A stretch of 24,000 nt of DNA from Acaryochloris marina S15 (GTDB lineage: Bacteria > Cyanobacteriota > Cyanobacteriia > Thermosynechococcales > Thermosynechococcaceae), in contig NZ_CP064923.1 of NCBI RefSeq assembly GCF_018336915.1, forward strand, positions 3,380,371 through 3,404,370, in the 5' to 3' direction. The notes under the pieces are model-generated. The model saw only the letters and a list, made by a program, of their open reading frames with translations. It was not told the DNA's origin and searched no databases. How positions within the stretch are numbered: the first letter of the stretch is position 1; each line of letters begins with the position of its first letter. The translations under genes and the position numbers were made by a program. Of this stretch, positions 4,831 to 20,726 are shown one piece after another.

Positions 4831-5684
4831 ACTAAAAAACCTCTTGTTTGGAGATGTTGGGTGATGTATGTGCATAAGTGCTCCCAACGCTCTAATCATA
4901 AGAAAAGCACTACTATGACCGAAAGGATCACATTTCCCAAATTGGTATGGATCTAAAGAACCGGATTGGAGTAGTACCAAAGTTCTAGATCTCAGGACAA
5001 AAAACGAAGATGGATAAACTTCACTTTAGTCCGATTCAGACAATTATGAGTTCCAGGTGTACCTAACAAAGACTTTGACATAAGCATTCTTTTGGTGATT
5101 AAAAACTATTTTCAGGCATAGTTTCAACACTCTTGATATATTTTCACTAAAAAATCATTTCTCTCCAAGATTGTTTATTCACCTCATTCAAACCTTGATA
5201 TCATTCAATTCCTAAAAACAAGGCATACAACTCTTGAATTAATTAAATCCTAAAAGAATACCCCATCCTCAATAAATATGCTGCCTACAAGATTCACGAA
5301 ATATCTAATAATTTATTCATAGTCTGATTTAAGAATAGGGACAATAGTCTTAACGGAAGAATTAAATCTAGAGATCTTGCAGATCAAACTTACTAGCATA
5401 TAGCTCAATACCTCTCTGAGATTAAACTATGACGATAGATCCAGAACTAAAAACTCAGTAAGATCACGCTGACAAGCAGAAAGTATCACGTTGTTCATGT
5501 GATCCAAATCGGATGATTCATTGGCCTTTACCGATAAGTTAGGAAAAGAGAGATAAACAGATTAGAAGCAAGTTCATTGCTCTTCTATTAATAAGAAATA
5601 GAGACTCTAGCATCACTTCATCTAATATATCTCTGACAAATCAGTCAACGTTCTTATTCTATTTTTCTGTTGGAAGAATCTATC

Positions 5685-5822
5685 ATGCTAAAGCCAATTA
5701 AAGTTACGCTGCTAGGTCTAATGGCAGCAACCACAACCACACTTGCTATCCCCCAAGCTAATGCTTACTCTTCATCGTCGGTTGGGCAACAATCAGAAGC
5801 TGCAGAACAAACTCAAAATTAG
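5685..5822 (+). CDS. Possible small secreted peptide (45 aa)
   Basis: This ORF is below the size cut-off of the ORF track. It reads MLKPIKVTLLGLMAATTTTLAIPQANA/YSSSSVGQQSEAAEQTQN, a clear signal-peptide-like N-terminus with an A-x-A site, and ends in a double stop (TAGTAG). There is a weak GGAAG about 10 nt upstream. Other frames overlap here (see findings). Confidence 0.35.
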   Translation: MLKPIKVTLLGLMAATTTTLAIPQANAYSSSSVGQQSEAAEQTQN

Positions 5823-6139
5823 TAGTATCTCATCATCGCTGGCGAGGAAGACGCAAATTGCGTCGAGTACGCTGGCGCAAAAAGTGGGTATGCTTCAAGC
5901 GCCCTGTCGTTTTCTATCGCCATGGACGTAAAATCGTGAAATTCAAGCGCCACTGCCACTGGAAAAAGTTCCGGGTACATCATGGGGGACATCATTTCTA
6001 AAATTGATGCAAGTTGATTTCAACCTCAGGCCTGAGATTCATCAATAATGTCATCGATTCAATATAATTAAGCGGCTCTAGAAAACTTCAATCCCATAAA
6101 GCCGCTTAATTGAGAAACTACAAAGTCTGGCGCAGTCTT

Positions 6140-6982
6140 TTAAAGGGCCTTCAGAAATTCAAGTACAGTCTCGACAAGGGCAGGATCGCCCTGGCGATAA
6201 CCCATAGGTGTGAGATGTTCACCTTCCAGCTCTCTCATTTTGGTAGGTTTATTGGGTAAATTAGCTTTCAGCCAGTCAACGGTATCTTTAGCAATTTTAT
6301 CTTTTGTAAAAGAGATTAACCCCATAAGACCGAATAATTGACTTTCTTTTATGAGGCAATAGGTCTCTTCTACGCTGGGTTGAACATCTAAGCCCAGACG
6401 TTTAACAAAATCAGCAACTGCTTTTACTGGTATCGCACTTTCAATGCCCGTAATAGCTGGAGCCATCAGTATAGAAGGCTGATTCAATAGAGAAATATCT
6501 TTGAAATCCACCCCATTTAATCGATCTTCAAGTTCCTGGTACTGATCCCGTCCAACACAGCCTCCTAAGATCTCTTTTTCTGACTTGGTTTCTAGATCCG
6601 TCAATAGCTCGAGTAAAGCTATATATTTATTCCCTAAGCTATGTCCCAACCAAAAATAATTCTTAGCTGCTGACTTGGGATCCTCTTCATAAATTTTGTA
6701 ATCATAGTCTCGACGTTTCGCCTCATCTAGAATGGCTTGACGGAGAGCTCTTTGCTCACGCACTAATCCGATTGCAACAGACCAATGGCGAAATGTGAAT
6801 CGATAAGGCAATGCAATGATTGTATATCCTTGGTCATAGATCTTTTGTAACAGAAATCGGTAAAAGATGGTGGGGAATGACCCAAAAAAAGCACCACCAA
6901 TAAATTGAACAACCCCCACAGGCTTGGGATGGATTGCAACCCAACTAAATTGCAATGGTAAAAACTTAAATTTTGATTGCAT
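6140..6982 (-). CDS. DUF1350-like alpha/beta-fold protein (cyanobacteria/plastid-lineage family)
   Basis: The N-terminal pattern W.AIHPKPVGVVQFIGGAFFGSFPTIFYRFLL...GYTIIALPYRFTFRHW matches my recollection of DUF1350. A GHSLG nucleophile-elbow-like motif is present. I chose the ATG at 6982 because GAGGG lies 5 nt upstream. The TTG at 6997 and ATG at 6994 are alternatives. Confidence 0.6.
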   Translation of the reverse strand: MQSKFKFLPLQFSWVAIHPKPVGVVQFIGGAFFGSFPTIFYRFLLQKIYDQGYTIIALPYRFTFRHWSVAIGLVREQRALRQAILDEAKRRDYDYKIYEEDPKSAAKNYFWLGHSLGNKYIALLELLTDLETKSEKEILGGCVGRDQYQELEDRLNGVDFKDISLLNQPSILMAPAITGIESAIPVKAVADFVKRLGLDVQPSVEETYCLIKESQLFGLMGLISFTKDKIAKDTVDWLKANLPNKPTKMRELEGEHLTPMGYRQGDPALVETVLEFLKAL

Positions 6983-9770: not shown

Positions 9771-11777
9771 ATGACAGCTTTTGACCTCCATGCTCCATTT
9801 GTCCCTAAAGGTGATCAACCCCAAGCCATTGAGAAACTGACCGCTCTCCTTCAATCTGGCCATTCTAGGCAAACTTTGCTGGGCGCTACGGGTACGGGTA
9901 AGACCTTCACGATGGCTAAGGTGATTGAAGAGATTGGTAAACCCACGCTAATCCTGGCCCATAACAAAACGCTAGCTGCGCAGCTCTGTAACGAAATCCG
10001 TTCCTTTTTTCCCAACAATGCAGTTGAGTATTTCATCAGCTATTACGACTATTACCAGCCTGAAGCCTATATTCCGGTCACAGATACCTTTATTGAAAAG
10101 ACAGCTGCCATCAATGAAGAAATTGATATGCTGCGGCATTCCGCGACACGATCGCTATTTGAACGTCAGGATGTCATTGTGGTGGCATCAATCAGCTGTA
10201 TTTACGGTTTGGGTATCCCTGCTGAGTATCTCAAGGCCTCAATCCCCCTCAAAGTTGGAGCTGAAGTTGATCAGCGGCAATTGCTGAGAAGTCTGGCAGC
10301 CGTGCAATATACCCGCAATGATGTGGACTTAGGGCGGGGGCGATTTCGAGTCAAAGGAGATGTTCTGGAGATTGGTCCAGCCTATGAAGACCGGATTATT
10401 CGGGTGGAGTTTTTTGGGGATGAGATCGATGCCATTCGCTATGTCGATCCCGTTACTGGAGCAACATTACAGAGTTTGGAAGGACTGAATGTTTATCCTG
10501 CCCGCCACTTTGTAACGCCAACAGAACGATTGGAAATGGCAGTTGAAGCCATTGATGAGGAGAGAAAAGCACAGGTCGAACATTTAGAAACGACCGGGAA
10601 ACTTTTGGAAGCTCAGCGCCTCAACCAACGGGCTCGCTACGATCTAGAGATGCTGAGAGAAGTTGGGTATTGCAATGGAGTAGAAAACTATTCTCGTCAT
10701 CTGGCTGGACGGGAAGCAGGGGCTCCACCTGAGTGTTTGGTGGATTATTTTCCTCAGGATTGGTTGTTAATCGTAGATGAGTCTCATGTATCGGTCCCCC
10801 AAATTCGGGCCATGTATAACGGCGATCAGGCTCGCAAGAAAGTTCTGATTGATCATGGTTTTCGTCTACCCAGTGCGGCAGACAATCGCCCCCTTAAGTC
10901 CGAAGAATTTTGGCAAAAAGTTAACCAGTGTGTGTTTGTGTCCGCTACTCCAGGGCAGTGGGAAATAGAGTTATCAGAAAATCGGGTAGTGGAGCAAGTT
11001 ATTCGACCGACGGGGGTAATCGATCCAGAAATTTTTGTCCGTCCGACAACTGGCCAAGTGGATGATTTACTAGCTGAGATTCATGAGCGAGTCAGTCGCC
11101 AAGAACGGACTTTGATCACCACCTTAACCAAACGGATGGCAGAGGACCTGACGGAATACTTTGAAGAGCGAGGCGTGCGAGTCCGATATCTGCATTCGGA
11201 GATTAATGCCATTCAACGTATCGAAATTCTTCGGGATTTACGCCAGGGAGTATTTGATGTCTTAGTTGGGGTCAATTTATTGCGAGAGGGGTTGGATTTA
11301 CCTGAAGTTTCTCTTGTAGCCATCTTAGATGCTGATAAAGAAGGGTTCCTGAGAGCTGAGCGTTCTCTGATTCAAACCATTGGTCGAGCCGCTCGCCATG
11401 TCCGAGGTCAAGCCATTCTCTATGCTGACAATCTGACGAATAGCATGGAAAGGGCTATTTCCGAAACTGAGCGGCGTCGGACCATTCAGCTTGCCTATAA
11501 TGAAAAGCATGGCATCACTCCACAACCGGTCAAAAAAGGATCTGATAATGCGATTTTGGCCTTTTTGGAGGTCTCCCGCCGCCTCAATACCCAAGAACTT
11601 GAGGATGCCTATGAACAGGCAGATGATCTACCCTTGGAGAGTGTGCCAGAGTTGATTACCCAATTGGAGGCAAAGATGAAGGAATCAGCTAAAAATCTGG
11701 AGTTCGAAGAAGCTGCAAAGTATCGAGATCGCATCAAGAACCTGAGATCTAAACTCTTAGGTCAAAAGTCTCCTTGA
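9771..11777 (+). CDS. uvrB: Excinuclease ABC subunit B
   Basis: The sequence is canonical UvrB along its full length. It has Walker [20 protein letters not shown], helicase motifs DESH and [15 protein letters not shown], and the C-terminal UVR motif ([11 protein letters not shown]). Confidence 0.97.
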
Positions 11778-16940: not shown

Positions 16941-17026
16941 CTAGAGCAACGCTAGCATGTTGGTCTGAGAATTCGGCTTACCTGTGATTGAACATTACAA
17001 AACGGTGAAGTCTTTTTGCCTGAAGG
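16941..17026. repeat. Direct repeat copy A, flanking the 3' side of the LRR-Roc-COR gene
   Basis: The core 16969-17012 (GAATTCGGCTTACCTGTGATTGAACATTACAAAACGGTGAAGTC) matches 20647-20690 at 42 of 44 positions. An upstream 16-mer at 16941-16956 matches 20619-20634 at 14/16 with the same 28-nt offset to the core. A shared TGAAGG lies further downstream. Confidence 0.85.
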
Positions 17027-17083
17027 CACAGGTATTTCAATGTTTCAATTGGTCATATTGAAAGTTCGCAGAATTTCCATTAC

Positions 17084-20000
17084 TTACAAGCGTTTATCCT
17101 CCCGGAGCTTGTCCAGTTGGCCTCGGAAGTGTCCCTGCAATCCTTCGATCGATTCATATTCCTTGTAAAAGTGGCTTAAATTACTAAGCTTATCTTTGAA
17201 GTCACGCAGAGAAATAAGATCATCAACATTGACATCACTGGTTGAAACCGTGGTCTTCCGGAAGTAGGTATAGATCAGCGGTTTCTTAGTCTTCTTGAAG
17301 GTTTTGTATGCAACGTCAAATTCTTCCTCTGTGTATTTACCTGTTTTAGTCTTGAACAAGCTGACGAAAATGTCGCAGTGTCGAATTTTTTGGTTATATT
17401 CATTCTGGAGTCGGGTTGTCGACATGGCATCAAGGAAGTTTTCCCAGCGGATAACTTCTAAGTAGATGCCTTGTTTGCGTAGACGGTCATTCTGCTGGCG
17501 AAAATATAGATCGAAAGCGTCGCGATCTTCGCGAAGCTCAGCTGAGGACGCTAGGAAGATCCGAATCGTCTTTTCCTTCACAGTATCCGCCGACTTAGAT
17601 TGATTTGATTCTTCAGGTGTTTCTATCTCACTATTGTCTTGAGGTAGCTCTTGTTTTGCTCTCGCCAACCATTGTTCTAGATTCATGCCATCCAGAAGTT
17701 CTAGCACGCTGACATCATGGTAGTCAGGTGGATTGGGGCACTCAATGGATGGTTTGCCTCTACTTTTCCGTTCAATTAATTTTTTCTGCTCGAACATTGC
17801 TGGTTCTGTTAGGTTCATGCAGGTTTCACAGATGCAAGGCACCCATTTACTGACTTTGTCTTTGAGTCCTTGGAAGCTGTCGTTTAGTGCATCAAGTTCA
17901 CTGGCAATAGTGCTGAGCAGCGATTTTTTTTCTGGACCACGGCTGCGGAGAATAATTTCATTACCTTTTTCGGCTGTCACCACTAGCATCTTTGTTTCAC
18001 CATGCTCGAATAAGGCACCCTGCAACCAACATAGATTCGGCTGCTTTACAAAACGGTGCACTCGAACGATCAGTCGGCTTACCAGGCCCCGAGGTAGAAA
18101 CTCGTAGCGGTAGGTCAACATCAGATCGCCACTCCTGGCCCAATTGTCTAGCTCTGAAGGCTTTGAAGGTGACAAGTGTTGTGGAACCAGCCATGTCTCT
18201 TTGTTCATATCCGGCAGCCGATAACATAGCTCGAAACGGACCATGAGGGCACGCAACTCTATTTCCTTATCCGCGTAGCCTTTTTTGGACCACAGACGAT
18301 CGCAATCATCCAGGGTAAAGCGACCTTGCTGGGATTTGACATTTTCGTCGTCAAGGATACGAAATACTGCATCTGTCATCCACTGGTTCTGTAAAAATAT
18401 AGTCCGTCGGAGTTCCCGTGGTTCCTGAAAGTGTAGGAACACTCCCAGGTCATGCAGGTACTGGCTTAGCTTTAGGGCCTTATCGAGATCTGCTTCAAGA
18501 TGACCTGCATAGACTGTGAAGTAGTTATCCAGTGAGATATAGGGCTGGGTCTTTGCCAATTCCTTCAATTCATCGCGAATGGCAACCCATTTAGCTGGTA
18601 CATCTTCACCAATATGTGGCAATTTCTGAATGTAGTATTCTACCGCTTGGCGCAGTTTATCCGCCGCACATGGATGTTCCAGATTGCCCCGATGGAACTC
18701 CTCTACGTTGGGAAAGCGCCCTCTGATGCCCACCTCGTCGATCTGTTTACTGCGTCCGCCTTTCTCATTTTGAAAAATTAGTAGGGGACTAGCTGCGCTA
18801 AGGGTTTCAACTACCTCCAGCCAGAACTTAAAACCTTCGTCATAGACTGATTTGTGATCACTGCGGGTGTCATCGACCAATACATACAAGGAACGCTTTG
18901 TGAGAAAGAACTGATGGGTCGCATGATAAATCTGCTGACCGCCAAAGTCCCAGGCATTAAGTCGAAACTTGCGTCCATTAGACATTGAGAACTCATGACG
19001 GTGGATATCGATGCCACGGGTTGTTTCGTCTTCGTTAGGCAGTCCTAATTCGGGCAGAAACATACGACGCAGAATGCTAGTTTTTCCAGCCCCACCCTCG
19101 CCAACAATTAGTAGTTTGGCTTCAAACAGCCGATCTACCCCCTGCGCTTCAACCTCATGAAAGTAATTGAGTACTGCCTCCGGCCCCTGCTTTACGATTT
19201 CCGGCGAGGGATGTGTTAGCGGACAATCTTCGACATAGATACCTACTCCCCGCCATGTTGCTTGGGACCAATGGATCGGTCGTTTGGCTAAGACCCACGA
19301 TTTTAAAGGTGATAGATCTACCACGTTTGTCTCAGCAATGTTCAGTGTCACGAGTGGAAGCTGTGCTAATGGAGCAACCGTCGTTATCTGTTTATTTGAA
19401 TTTAGATGTAGATCGTTGAGAGCTGTTTGGTGTTGACCAATGGCAATGACAACTGCATCACCCACATTGTTGTTACTCAGATTGAGTGACGAGAGCTGTT
19501 GGAGGTTCTCTGCGATGGCCCGCGCCCCGTCATCACCCACTTTGTTGTTTCTCAGATTGAGTGACGAGAGCTGTTGAAGGTTCTCTGCGATGGCCCGCGC
19601 CCCGTCATCACCCACATTGTTGTTTCTCAGATTGAGTGACGAGAGCTGTTGGAGGTTCTCTGCAATGGCCCGCGCCCCGTCATCACCCACTTTGTTGCCA
19701 CTCAGATCAAGGGACGAGAGCTGTTGGAGGTTCTCTACGATGGCCCGCGCCCCATCATCGCCCACTTCGTTGAAACTCAGATTGAGTGACGAGAGCTGTT
19801 GGAGGTTCTCTGCAATGGCCCGCGCCCCGTCATCACCCACATTGTTGTTACTCAGATTGAGTGACGAGAGCTGTTGGAGGTTCTCTGCGATGGCCCGCGC
19901 CCCATCATCGCCCACTTCGTTGAAACTCAGATTGAGTGACGAGAGCTGTTGGAGGTTCTCTGCAATGGCCCGCGCCCCGTCATCACCCACTTCGTTGTCA

Positions 20001-20515
20001 CTCAGATCAAGTGACGAGAGCTGTTGGAGGTTCTCTGCGATGGCCCGCGCCCCATCATCGCCCACTTCGTTGAAACTCAGATTGAGTGACGAGAGCTGTT
20101 GGAGGTTCTCTGCGATGGCCCGCGCCCCGTCAGCGCCCACTTCGTTGTCACTCAGATCAAGTGACGAGAGCTGTTGGAGGTTCTCTGCGATGGCAGTGAT
20201 GTCTGTATCCTGCAGGCTGAGGGACCAAAAGGTGAGAGTTTGCAACCGATTGAGTCGCAATAGTTCAAGGGGGAGACTAGATAACTGGGTGGTAAGTTGG
20301 AATACAACGCGCCCCTGAAACTCCTTTGGCCAATTGTCCATTGATGGTGAAAGGCTAACTTCTGGTCCAAAGAGGGCTAGGTCAGTCCGATGTTCATTGC
20401 TGAGCCGCATTAGTAGATCGGGCAATTCATCTGGATTTATGCGCTGCAGCCCAGTTTCTCCAGTCATATTAGGTACTCCCAGCTTGTCCATCGGCTTTTT
20501 TTGGGTATTGCCCAC
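17084..20515 (-). CDS. ROCO-type multidomain protein: LRR (10 near-identical 25-aa repeats) - Roc GTPase - COR - Cys cluster - C-terminal TIR-like/DUF4062-like domain
   Basis: The ORF is 1143 aa. The LRR unit is LQQLSSLxLSxNxVGDDGARAIAEN. Roc motifs include P-loop LLIVGEGGAGKTS and switch II WDFGGQ. COR landmarks are VPAKWVAIRDELKE, YISLDNYF, LHDLGVFLHFQ and WLVPQHLSPSKP. The C-terminal 160 aa carry IRIFLASSAELREDRD...CDIFVSLFKTKTGKYTEEEFDVAY...KPLIYTYF. The annotated start is GTG at 20515. The ATG at 20467 (GGAG 8 nt upstream) is an alternative. Confidence 0.9.
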   Translation of the reverse strand: MGNTQKKPMDKLGVPNMTGETGLQRINPDELPDLLMRLSNEHRTDLALFGPEVSLSPSMDNWPKEFQGRVVFQLTTQLSSLPLELLRLNRLQTLTFWSLSLQDTDITAIAENLQQLSSLDLSDNEVGADGARAIAENLQQLSSLNLSFNEVGDDGARAIAENLQQLSSLDLSDNEVGDDGARAIAENLQQLSSLNLSFNEVGDDGARAIAENLQQLSSLNLSNNNVGDDGARAIAENLQQLSSLNLSFNEVGDDGARAIVENLQQLSSLDLSGNKVGDDGARAIAENLQQLSSLNLRNNNVGDDGARAIAENLQQLSSLNLRNNKVGDDGARAIAENLQQLSSLNLSNNNVGDAVVIAIGQHQTALNDLHLNSNKQITTVAPLAQLPLVTLNIAETNVVDLSPLKSWVLAKRPIHWSQATWRGVGIYVEDCPLTHPSPEIVKQGPEAVLNYFHEVEAQGVDRLFEAKLLIVGEGGAGKTSILRRMFLPELGLPNEDETTRGIDIHRHEFSMSNGRKFRLNAWDFGGQQIYHATHQFFLTKRSLYVLVDDTRSDHKSVYDEGFKFWLEVVETLSAASPLLIFQNEKGGRSKQIDEVGIRGRFPNVEEFHRGNLEHPCAADKLRQAVEYYIQKLPHIGEDVPAKWVAIRDELKELAKTQPYISLDNYFTVYAGHLEADLDKALKLSQYLHDLGVFLHFQEPRELRRTIFLQNQWMTDAVFRILDDENVKSQQGRFTLDDCDRLWSKKGYADKEIELRALMVRFELCYRLPDMNKETWLVPQHLSPSKPSELDNWARSGDLMLTYRYEFLPRGLVSRLIVRVHRFVKQPNLCWLQGALFEHGETKMLVVTAEKGNEIILRSRGPEKKSLLSTIASELDALNDSFQGLKDKVSKWVPCICETCMNLTEPAMFEQKKLIERKSRGKPSIECPNPPDYHDVSVLELLDGMNLEQWLARAKQELPQDNSEIETPEESNQSKSADTVKEKTIRIFLASSAELREDRDAFDLYFRQQNDRLRKQGIYLEVIRWENFLDAMSTTRLQNEYNQKIRHCDIFVSLFKTKTGKYTEEEFDVAYKTFKKTKKPLIYTYFRKTTVSTSDVNVDDLISLRDFKDKLSNLSHFYKEYESIEGLQGHFRGQLDKLREDKRL
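17087..17569 (-). other. C-terminal putative effector domain (aa 983-1143), TIR-like / DUF4062-like flavodoxin-type fold
   Basis: The beta-alpha pattern runs IRIFLASS (strand), ELREDRDAFDLYF (helix), IYLEVIRWE (strand), CDIFVSLF (strand), GKYTEEEFDVAY (conserved-Glu helix), PLIYTYF (strand). This matches my recollection of the DUF4062 / TIR-like consensus (vFiSS..dL.eeR ... cDvfv.i.g.rYG...TE.Ey..A...kP.l.f). It has not been checked with an HMM. Confidence 0.5.
17846..18628 (-). other. COR (C-terminal of Roc) domain, aa ~630-890
   Basis: It follows the Roc domain directly. Typical COR strings are present: KWVAIRDELKE, YISLDNYF, LSQYLHDLGVFLHFQ, FLQNQWMTDAVFRILD, ELCYRL and WLVPQHL. Confidence 0.7.
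18641..19123 (-). other. Roc (Ras of complex proteins) GTPase domain, aa ~465-625
   Basis: G1 is GEGGAGKTS (nt 19076-19102). G3 is DFGGQ (nt 18935-18949). The G4 position reads NEKG (nt 18758-18769) instead of the canonical NKxD. Confidence 0.85.
19430..20203 (-). repeat. 75-bp (25-codon) in-frame tandem repeat array encoding 10 LRR units
   Basis: The period is 75 nt (for example, CCCAC at 19461 and 19536). The units are nearly identical in DNA sequence, with a few recurring subtype variants (SFNE, SDNE, S/RNNN/K). Confidence 0.9.
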
Positions 20516-20618
20516 CCTCTATTTCTCGATGTGTTTTATCCATTACCATCAATATTTCTTGACCTTCTCAATACAATATCTCAGCCGAATCAGTGACATT
20601 TACGCATTTATCTCTATG

Positions 20619-20726
20619 CCAGAGCAATGCTAGCCCTATGACACCAGAATTCGGGTTACCTGTGATTGAACATTACAAAACGGTGAAATCAGTGGTCCTG
20701 AGTCGGGAGACCTTTTATCTTGAAGG
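20619..20726. repeat. Direct repeat copy B, flanking the 5' side of the LRR-Roc-COR gene
   Basis: See copy A. The core 20647-20690 is 42/44 identical to 16969-17012. Copy B carries a 20-nt insertion (20691-20710) before the shared CTTTT..TGAAGG tail. It lies 28-135 nt upstream of the pip start codon. Confidence 0.85.

Follow-up and report, generated by a model that had tools for sequence, protein, structure and literature searches.

Proteins in which leucine-rich repeats (LRRs) are followed by an AP-GTPase (Roc), a COR domain and a DrHyd or TIR domain were catalogued computationally by Kaur, Iyer, Burroughs and Aravind as predicted counter-invader systems (eLife 2021; PMC8195603). In these proteins, rapidly evolving N-terminal LRRs precede the AP-GTPase and the COR domain, after which at least 24 alternative C-terminal domains occur, including TIR, DRHyd, caspase, trypsin, FGS, GT4 and effector-associated domains (EADs) (PMC8195603, Fig. 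6D). The source data of that study list the combination COR+DrHyd 53–57 times and COR+TIR about 580–590 times. Here we analyse a gene with this type of architecture in the cyanobacterium Acaryochloris marina S15. It occupies positions 17084..20515 on the minus strand of a 24,000-nt stretch of contig NZ_CP064923.1 (positions 3,380,371 to 3,404,370; from here: the window).

Two bioRxiv preprints from 2026 described DUF4062 domains as Glu-dependent NADases that bring about abortive infection in the systems Swarozyc and Evangelion and that act also in the human protein TEP1. DrHyd and DUF4062 are one domain, because the files of PMC8195603 label proteins as DrHyd that NCBI calls ‘DUF4062 domain-containing proteins’. 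Roc, COR, LRR and GTPase are mentioned neither in the text of the two preprints nor in the searchable supplement. Hence, the class is already known computationally and its effector chemistry experimentally, and the A. marina gene is a further member. Since a prediction of the concept dates from 2021 and the chemistry of the effector was shown in 2026, the value of this gene is that of a good experimental candidate and not that of a discovery.

The LRR-Roc-COR core is homologous to the cores of Chlorobium tepidum Roco, Methanosarcina barkeri Roco2 (structures 3DPU, 6HLU, 8R4B and 4WNR) and LRRK2, which likewise carries an output domain after COR. While CtRoco lacks an enzymatic output domain and LRRK2 possesses a kinase and a WD40 domain, a TIR-like domain is found at this place in the A. 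marina protein. The logic of sensor repeat, nucleotide switch and death effector is shared with bacterial STAND/NLR-like proteins (Avs, bNACHT) and with plant TIR-NLRs. However, the protein is not a member of the STAND/NLR family, because it switches through a Ras-like Roc G domain and a dimerising COR instead of a STAND AAA+ ATPase. Brown-algal LRR-ROCO proteins (Front Plant Sci 2024, PMC11378527) also combine ROCO with diversifying LRRs and were proposed as immune receptors, but they are eukaryotic, diversify by exon shuffling and are described there without a TIR-like effector.

We propose, with a probability of roughly 60%, that the A. marina protein is a stand-alone NLR-like conflict sensor against phages or other invaders, belonging to the AP-GTPase/ROCO-centred class and acting through a TIR-like effector that hydrolyses NAD(P)+. 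This proposal builds on the architecture of the protein, its conserved putative catalytic residues, the modular position of the effector and the mobility of the gene, all of which were observed here.

Domain architecture

The open reading frame (ORF) is intact, starts with GTG and encodes 1143 amino acids (aa). The corresponding NCBI entry (WP_212661983.1 / QUY40769.1) begins at Met17 instead, has 1127 aa with 100% identity and is annotated as ‘COR domain-containing protein [Acaryochloris marina]’. From the N- to the C-terminus, the protein consists of ten 25-aa LRRs, Roc, COR-A, COR-B, a variable linker and a 160-aa C-terminal domain. Pfam searches with the whole ORF returned LRR_6 (3.5e-46), Roc (aa 467–584, 2.8e-20; window positions 18764..19117), COR-A (aa 640–781, 1.4e-35; 18173..18598) and COR-B (aa 798–943, 8.1e-28; 17687..18124), all on the minus strand, as are the other parts of the protein. 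A STAND NTPase module (NACHT, NB-ARC or other) was not matched by Pfam anywhere in the ORF; AAA_16 (E = 0.42) covers the P-loop only. The first-pass annotation, made from the sequence alone, had described this 1143-aa protein as a four-part combination of LRRs, Roc, COR and a further C-terminal domain; the profile matches agree with it, and the P-loop, switch II and acidic-helix motifs lie exactly at the residues it had given (K478, DFGGQ at aa 523–527 and E1063–E1065).

Besides these domains, the protein contains an N-terminal region with irregular first LRRs (aa 1–112; 20180..20515), which is kept in the TIR_2-bearing variant P0207 from Thiodictyon, and a segment of irregular terminal LRRs together with the LRR-Roc connector (aa 363–460; 19136..19429). 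COR-B includes the Cys-rich sequence VPCICETC...IECP and ends with LLDG. It is followed by the linker (aa 944–981; 17573..17686), the length and composition of which are variable, and by the DUF4062/NPHP3-like TIR-like domain (aa 982–1143; 17087..17572).

With regard to the core, a Ras-like Roc domain with P-loop and DxxGQ switch II is directly followed by COR-A and COR-B, as is characteristic for ROCO proteins. The homology of Roc-COR to solved Roco structures reaches 1.6e-47 for 4WNR, 3.3e-39 for 3DPU, about 1e-39 for 6HLU and 8R4B, and about 1e-24 for LRRK2.

The ten RI (ribonuclease inhibitor)-like LRRs span aa 113–362 (19430..20179), a 10 × 25 aa array at the protein level. At the DNA level, Tandem Repeats Finder reported a 75-nt unit in 9.9 copies with 91% matches at 19456–20194, in accordance with the ten near-identical repeats noted before. 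Repeats 1–9 differ at unit positions 8, 10, 11 and 13, all of them x positions of LxxLxLxxNxL that are predicted to be exposed to solvent, and single substitutions also occur at 16 and 23, while the rest of the scaffold is identical. Rapidly evolving LRRs, a trait of AP-GTPase-centred counter-invader systems, are hence present in this protein. Homologues in which Roc-COR is fully covered are about 700 to 1230 aa long, and their LRR arrays were expanded independently, with 10 × 25 aa here and 19 × 22 aa in a second gene from a Bryobacteraceae metagenome-assembled genome (MAG) that is described below.

The C-terminal domain

Searched on its own (aa 976–1143), the C-terminal domain yielded sub-threshold Pfam matches to NPHP3 (PF25022, 2e-5), TIR_2 (5.6e-4) and DUF4062 (PF13271, 5e-3). 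These matches are recurrent, as among 71 homologues 39 matched NPHP3, 38 TIR_2 and 42 DUF4062; no other Pfam family recurred in this set, save COR-B carried over in six longer fragments. The PADLOC model PDC-S60 was matched with 7.8e-13, but over profile positions 3–164 of 906 only, so that the effector domain alone is in common. A literature search for PDC-S60 returned nothing.

Three motifs stand out, the βA strand IRIFLASS, RWENFLDAMS in the BB-loop region, and KTGKYTEEEF, in which KYTEEEF occupies aa 1060–1066 and includes E1063–E1065. In the homologue alignments, W1024–E1025 (W49, E50) and E1065 (E90) are invariant, whereas F1066 (F91) and F987 are nearly so. E1065 and F1066 lie in the first turn of helix C (αC) and correspond to the catalytic ‘E-Y’ region as delimited in Evangelion and Swarozyc. 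Thus, the elements shared by the effector superfamily of Swarozyc (KpSwz), Evangelion (Eva01) and TEP1 are found here: an aromatic residue in βA, the W/E motif and an acidic ...TE.E-aromatic motif with the putative catalytic Glu. In contrast, the combination typical of canonical TIR domains, a TIR_2 or TIR match above gathering together with a WxxxE-type motif, was not found.

An AlphaFold2 model built from the 71 sequences (predicted local distance difference test 85.3, predicted template modelling score 0.83) has a strict (βα)×5 order, the topology that was described for the DUF4062 domain of KpSwz (bioRxiv 2026). The only low-confidence loop of the model is WENFLDAMS at the BB-loop position. 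The TIR-like/DUF4062-like ending suggested in the first-pass annotation therefore gains support from the recurrent matches, the PDC-S60 hit, the predicted topology and the invariant Glu. We place the C-terminal domain, as a divergent representative, in the DUF4062/NPHP3 TIR-like superfamily on the grounds of sequence profiles, motifs and context, with its fold membership being predicted. It putatively works like a TIR domain, yet we do not file it as one.

The Ras fold has a β2-β3 hairpin and six strands, unlike the (βα)×5 order. A second Ras-like domain at the C-terminus was considered and rejected in view of the strict β-α alternation over five strands, the missing Walker A motif and a Ras-family Pfam match in 0 of the 71 homologues.

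The position of the domain differs from that in the characterised proteins. DUF4062 is N-terminal in Swarozyc and Evangelion, next to a short auxiliary (AUX) region or a helical stalk, and also in TEP1 and NPHP3, where NACHT-WD40 follows, whereas it is C-terminal here, with a Pfam score below threshold. Swarozyc and Evangelion are likewise single-gene systems in which the auxiliary region gates the NADase; in the A. marina protein this gating is predicted to be exerted by LRR-Roc-COR.

On the level of chemistry, the main rival view is that the domain acts on (deoxy)nucleotides as an N-glycosidase similar to NDT (nucleoside 2′-deoxyribosyltransferase) or Rcl. More broadly, the same architecture could serve a conflict role through N-glycosidase action on (deoxy)nucleotides or nucleic acids, or through the synthesis of a signalling nucleotide, instead of NAD+ depletion. 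Aravind’s group calls the domain DrHyd and grouped it with ‘nucleotide and NAD+-processing domains’, and Osinski et al. placed DUF4062 between the TIR and NDT clans. Furthermore, NDTs were among the best Foldseek matches of our model, with 8qc0 at rank 2 in the PDB (18% identity) and several NDTs in BFVD. However, every DUF4062 protein tested so far (KpSwz, Eva01, TEP1) hydrolyses NAD(P)+ with the catalytic Glu in the same motif, and this E-aromatic motif is conserved here. We therefore regard a different chemistry as unlikely and prefer NAD(P)+ hydrolysis.

A homologous domain was also detected on the Vibrio harveyi plasmid p.N8T11-A (L094, 2250–7083). There, a 368-aa protein with such an N-terminal domain (hhalign 95.7%, 9e-9) and an unannotated C-terminal part adjoins a KAP-family P-loop NTPase, a layout resembling Swarozyc and Evangelion, with the domain being invisible to Pfam. 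Because it lacks a Pfam match, this protein provides no bridge to bona fide DUF4062 proteins.

Effector exchange and distribution

With Roc-COR plus the C-terminal domain as query, more than 4,000 relatives were found. Full-length homologues with 58–78% identity occur in Cyanobacteria, Nitrospira, Gammaproteobacteria, Nitrosomonas, Planctomycetota and Desulfuromonas, the closest relative of the A. marina protein being 78% identical. The protein HBH73318.1 (DDY43_07685) in the table of PMC8195603 is our relative P0190; it covers 100% of the Roc-COR-effector query with 59% identity.

Six relatives are 74–81% identical over Roc-COR only and possess a TIR_2 domain, with Pfam scores above threshold, in place of the DUF4062-type domain. 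This TIR_2 domain follows LLDG in P0176, P0180 and P0205–P0207 and LLEG in P0240. The alignment with the Thiodictyon protein P0207 extends from residue 17 to about residue 960 and stops just past the conserved LLDG, at the variable linker. Because the similarity to TIR_2-bearing relatives stops there, the linker is the junction for module swapping. Judged by these alignments, a clean effector swap has occurred on one Roc-COR chassis. Effectors exchangeable among close relatives and the single-polypeptide LRR-Roc-COR-effector arrangement are features in common with the AP-GTPase counter-invader systems in PMC8195603. In comparison, that work was purely computational and named the domain DrHyd, while we here describe an indel polymorphism and deviating G4 and G5 motifs.

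An exhaustive search of cluster representatives identified 3,476 clusters containing the C-terminal domain. It is C-terminal in ROCO-sized proteins and elsewhere N-terminal to NACHT/nSTAND plus HEAT/TPR, or to FGE-sulfatase (domain identity about 50–58%); in short proteins it is fused to EAD11, an ‘effector-associated domain’. Effector modules of NLR-like conflict systems behave in this way. In 185,579 scanned species genomes, 384 confirmed stretches with the domain were obtained from about 12 phyla (56–81% domain identity), and Acaryochloris was not among the best 80 loci listed in that scan.

A domain relative with 52% identity was found by tblastn of plasmids on the conjugative plasmid pMB06 of Acaryochloris sp. 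‘Moss Beach’ (NZ_CP071723.1), where the NCBI annotation pipeline PGAP calls it ‘DUF4062 domain-containing protein’. Three adjacent ORFs are present at this site (L089, 5695–8486), encoding an LRR protein, Roc-COR with a truncated COR-B and, directly downstream, the DUF4062 protein. Because the DUF4062 gene directly follows the LRR and Roc-COR genes, this set is a split copy of the LRR-Roc-COR-DUF4062 architecture, which either has decayed or is a version made up of several genes.

The split on pMB06 would fit a C-terminal domain without catalytic activity that serves only for oligomerisation or as an adaptor, or else a gene that is a decaying passenger without current function. In the same direction, the eukaryotic DUF4062 proteins NWD1, NWD2 and NPHP3 were assayed beside TEP1, and the abstract of that preprint names TEP1 alone as an active NADase. 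But the 1143-aa ORF of A. marina is intact, and the putative active-site residues as well as WENFLDAMS at the BB-loop are invariant or nearly so in the 71 homologues. This conservation across phyla argues for purifying selection on an enzyme-like surface, and we deem an inert domain or a mere passenger very improbable compared with an active TIR-like effector.

Strain polymorphism of the locus

The window neighbours of the gene are an HdrB-like CCG protein gene and a gene for a pip-type α/β hydrolase. Four Logan assemblies encode an identical pip protein. In three of these (L085–L087), pip is separated from the HdrB-like gene by 164 bp only, and no ROCO gene lies between them. The flanks in these three assemblies are 98.6–99.5% identical to the window. 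The difference is a 3,678-bp segment (17010..20687) consisting of the gene, its own flanks and one copy of a 41-nt direct repeat, by which the segment is bounded on both sides (left copy 16969..17009, right copy 20647..20687, both on the plus strand). The two copies differ at one base, and a single copy exists at the empty site (about 9893–9934 in L085–L087). Just left of the right repeat copy, the native left flank recurs in diverged form (20590–20645). No recombinase is encoded in the 3,678-bp unit.

In a clustering among 15 billion proteins, the A. marina protein was a singleton at 90% identity. As far as these genome comparisons reach, the gene is a rare, patchy, horizontally moving and strain-specific accessory cassette of a single gene, and the locus difference is an insertion or deletion. 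A core gene universally conserved at this position, which would have spoken against the conflict-sensor idea of the first-pass annotation, is thus not what is found. The Acaryochloris copy offers an intact, presumably recently acquired example together with a natural ‘empty-site’ control strain. Strains with the empty site stand behind the accessions SRR17348480/81/83.

Long flanking repeats of this type were present at 2 of the 26 family loci tested. The other one is the second ROCO-DUF4062 gene mentioned above, in the Bryobacteraceae MAG (L021, 6791–10489), with its 19 LRRs of 22 aa. It is flanked by a 129-nt direct repeat with 99% identity (6286–6414 and 10612–10740), which is a fragment of the 3′ part of the adjacent citrate-synthase-like gene, and this unit, too, is without a recombinase.

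Nucleotide-binding motifs of Roc

In the Roc G domain, the P-loop GEGGAGKTS (aa 472–480, with K478), the switch I sequence ETTRG and the switch II sequence DFGGQ (aa 523–527) are intact. The canonical G4 motif (N/T)KxD and the G5 motif S(A/C)K are absent. At the G4 site FQNEKGG (aa 581–587; 18755–18775) aligns with LNKID of 4WNR, and at the G5 site GNLE (about 18670–18690) aligns with ISCK. This deviation is clade-wide: within P0121–P0240 the G4 zone reads FQNEK[GA]G, with [NT]KxD in 0 of 116 members and GNLE in 90 of them, while P-loop, switch I Thr and DFGGQ are preserved. By contrast, the Chlorobium and Methanosarcina Roco proteins and LRRK2 have the canonical NKxD and SCK in place of NEKGG and GNLE. 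Accordingly, the Roc GTPase switch postulated in the first-pass annotation held with regard to P-loop and switch II, but the non-canonical G4 and G5 had been overlooked.

The nucleotide specificity of this Roc clade may therefore not necessarily be for guanine. A more far-reaching and doubtful possibility is that Roc is not a GTPase at all and reads another nucleotide, such as ATP or an infection-altered nucleotide pool, so that Roc itself would be a second sensor input to the TIR-like effector beside the LRRs. In the same scenario, the gene might spread as a one-gene cassette via target-homologous arms of 40–130 nt without a recombinase of its own.

Proposed mechanism

We infer ligand sensing, the coupling of the switch, the substrate and the phenotype as follows. 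At rest, the C-terminal domains would be kept inactive by the LRRs together with the nucleotide state of Roc-COR. In analogy to Chlorobium Roco, where a monomer-dimer cycle depends on GTP, an invader-derived ligand bound to the concave face of the LRRs would alter both the nucleotide state of Roc and the dimerisation or oligomerisation through COR. The TIR-like domains on their flexible tethers might then be released, re-positioned or clustered to form a competent active site. As in Swarozyc, Evangelion and TEP1, the domain would hydrolyse NAD+ (or NADP+) to ADP-ribose and nicotinamide, and the infected cell would stop growing or die (abortive infection). As far as computation allows, our results support the NLR-style reading of the first-pass annotation, among other findings through the canonical TIR_2 domain in the same position of close Roc-COR relatives; the immune and NADase role we likewise infer, and the idea was already present in PMC8195603.

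Several observations weigh against this reading. All three Pfam scores of the C-terminal domain are under the gathering cut-offs (17.4 vs 24.7 bits for DUF4062, 25 vs 33 for NPHP3 and 20.8 vs 28 for TIR_2). While the first-pass annotation had asked for a structural comparison and the AlphaFold2 topology agreed, the Foldseek searches against PDB and BFVD were non-discriminating, with TM-scores of about 0.4–0.55, Ras on top and NDT, flavodoxin and TIR intermixed. Profile searches of PDB sequences with two alignments detected no solved structure. An hhalign comparison of the domain family with the six TIR_2 variants gave a probability of 0.3%, with both profiles being too narrow (number of effective sequences below 2). 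As G4 and G5 are non-canonical, a ‘GTPase switch’ has to be assumed. For a gene engaged in an arms race, Roc-COR and the effector show an unusual degree of conservation. Out of eight gene contexts inspected, one (L004) resembles a defence island and one more has toxin-antitoxin modules (HicAB, YoeB) next door, the rest, including the window, being housekeeping. Finally, the literature contains no experimental study of any Roc-COR-DUF4062 protein, in line with the earlier remark that a characterised system with this exact architecture was not known, which still appears correct.

If the proposal is right, Roc-COR would gate an easily assayed enzyme and hence offer a direct read-out of the control that the Roc nucleotide cycle and COR dimerisation exert on an output domain. 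Such a family would also put to the test whether, in NLR-type immunity, the place of the STAND ATPase can be taken by a Ras-like GTPase. To our knowledge, no prokaryotic Roco protein, these being the bacterial relatives of the Parkinson’s-disease protein LRRK2, has an experimentally assigned biological role.

Gene neighbourhoods

Both neighbours of the gene in the window had been called housekeeping genes, and this assignment stands for the HdrB-like CCG protein and the pip-type hydrolase. The expected location of homologues in defence islands was seen for L004, plus the one toxin-antitoxin context, but not for the other contexts. Because the association is weak, with 1–2 of 8 contexts, it is not taken as support. 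The gene behaves as a solitary unit.

These mostly housekeeping surroundings, the synteny in two Nitrospira species and the strong conservation of the Roc-COR and effector parts across phyla could also be read as signs of non-immune ROCO signalling, in which the protein, prompted by an endogenous cue or one from the environment, would tune dormancy, cell-cell recognition or the metabolism of NAD or nucleotides. We consider such a role improbable, since the gene is present or absent among strains that are about 99% identical and forms a singleton cluster, a copy resides on a conjugative plasmid, the effector is swapped with TIR_2 and its domain is fused to EAD11 and NACHT elsewhere, LRR arrays were expanded independently (25 aa × 10 here versus 22 aa × 19 in L021), and the domain is rare among the species genomes scanned. 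A conflict sensor accommodates these features better.

The synteny concerns Candidatus Nitrospira neomarina and Ca. N. allomarina (L003, L090), in which the ROCO-DUF4062 gene is at the same locus, between a MEKHLA-domain gene and the gene for shikimate kinase. The downstream content differs, with an additional gene for a dCMP/MafB19-type deaminase in Ca. N. allomarina.

In the Planctomycetaceae MAG (L004, 7091–9956), genes for a 180-aa TIR_2/ThsB_TIR protein and for a 762-aa protein without a Pfam match lie directly upstream of the ROCO-DUF4062 gene, and transposases and a SLATT_2 gene are close by. This may be a composite defence locus.

Scans for promoters and terminators, Rfam families and tRNAs were uninformative. 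Elsewhere in the window, a region of about 1.1 kb (4980–6140) without an ORF of at least 100 aa and without an Rfam or tRNA match has a GC content of about 0.37, compared to 0.44–0.48 around it.

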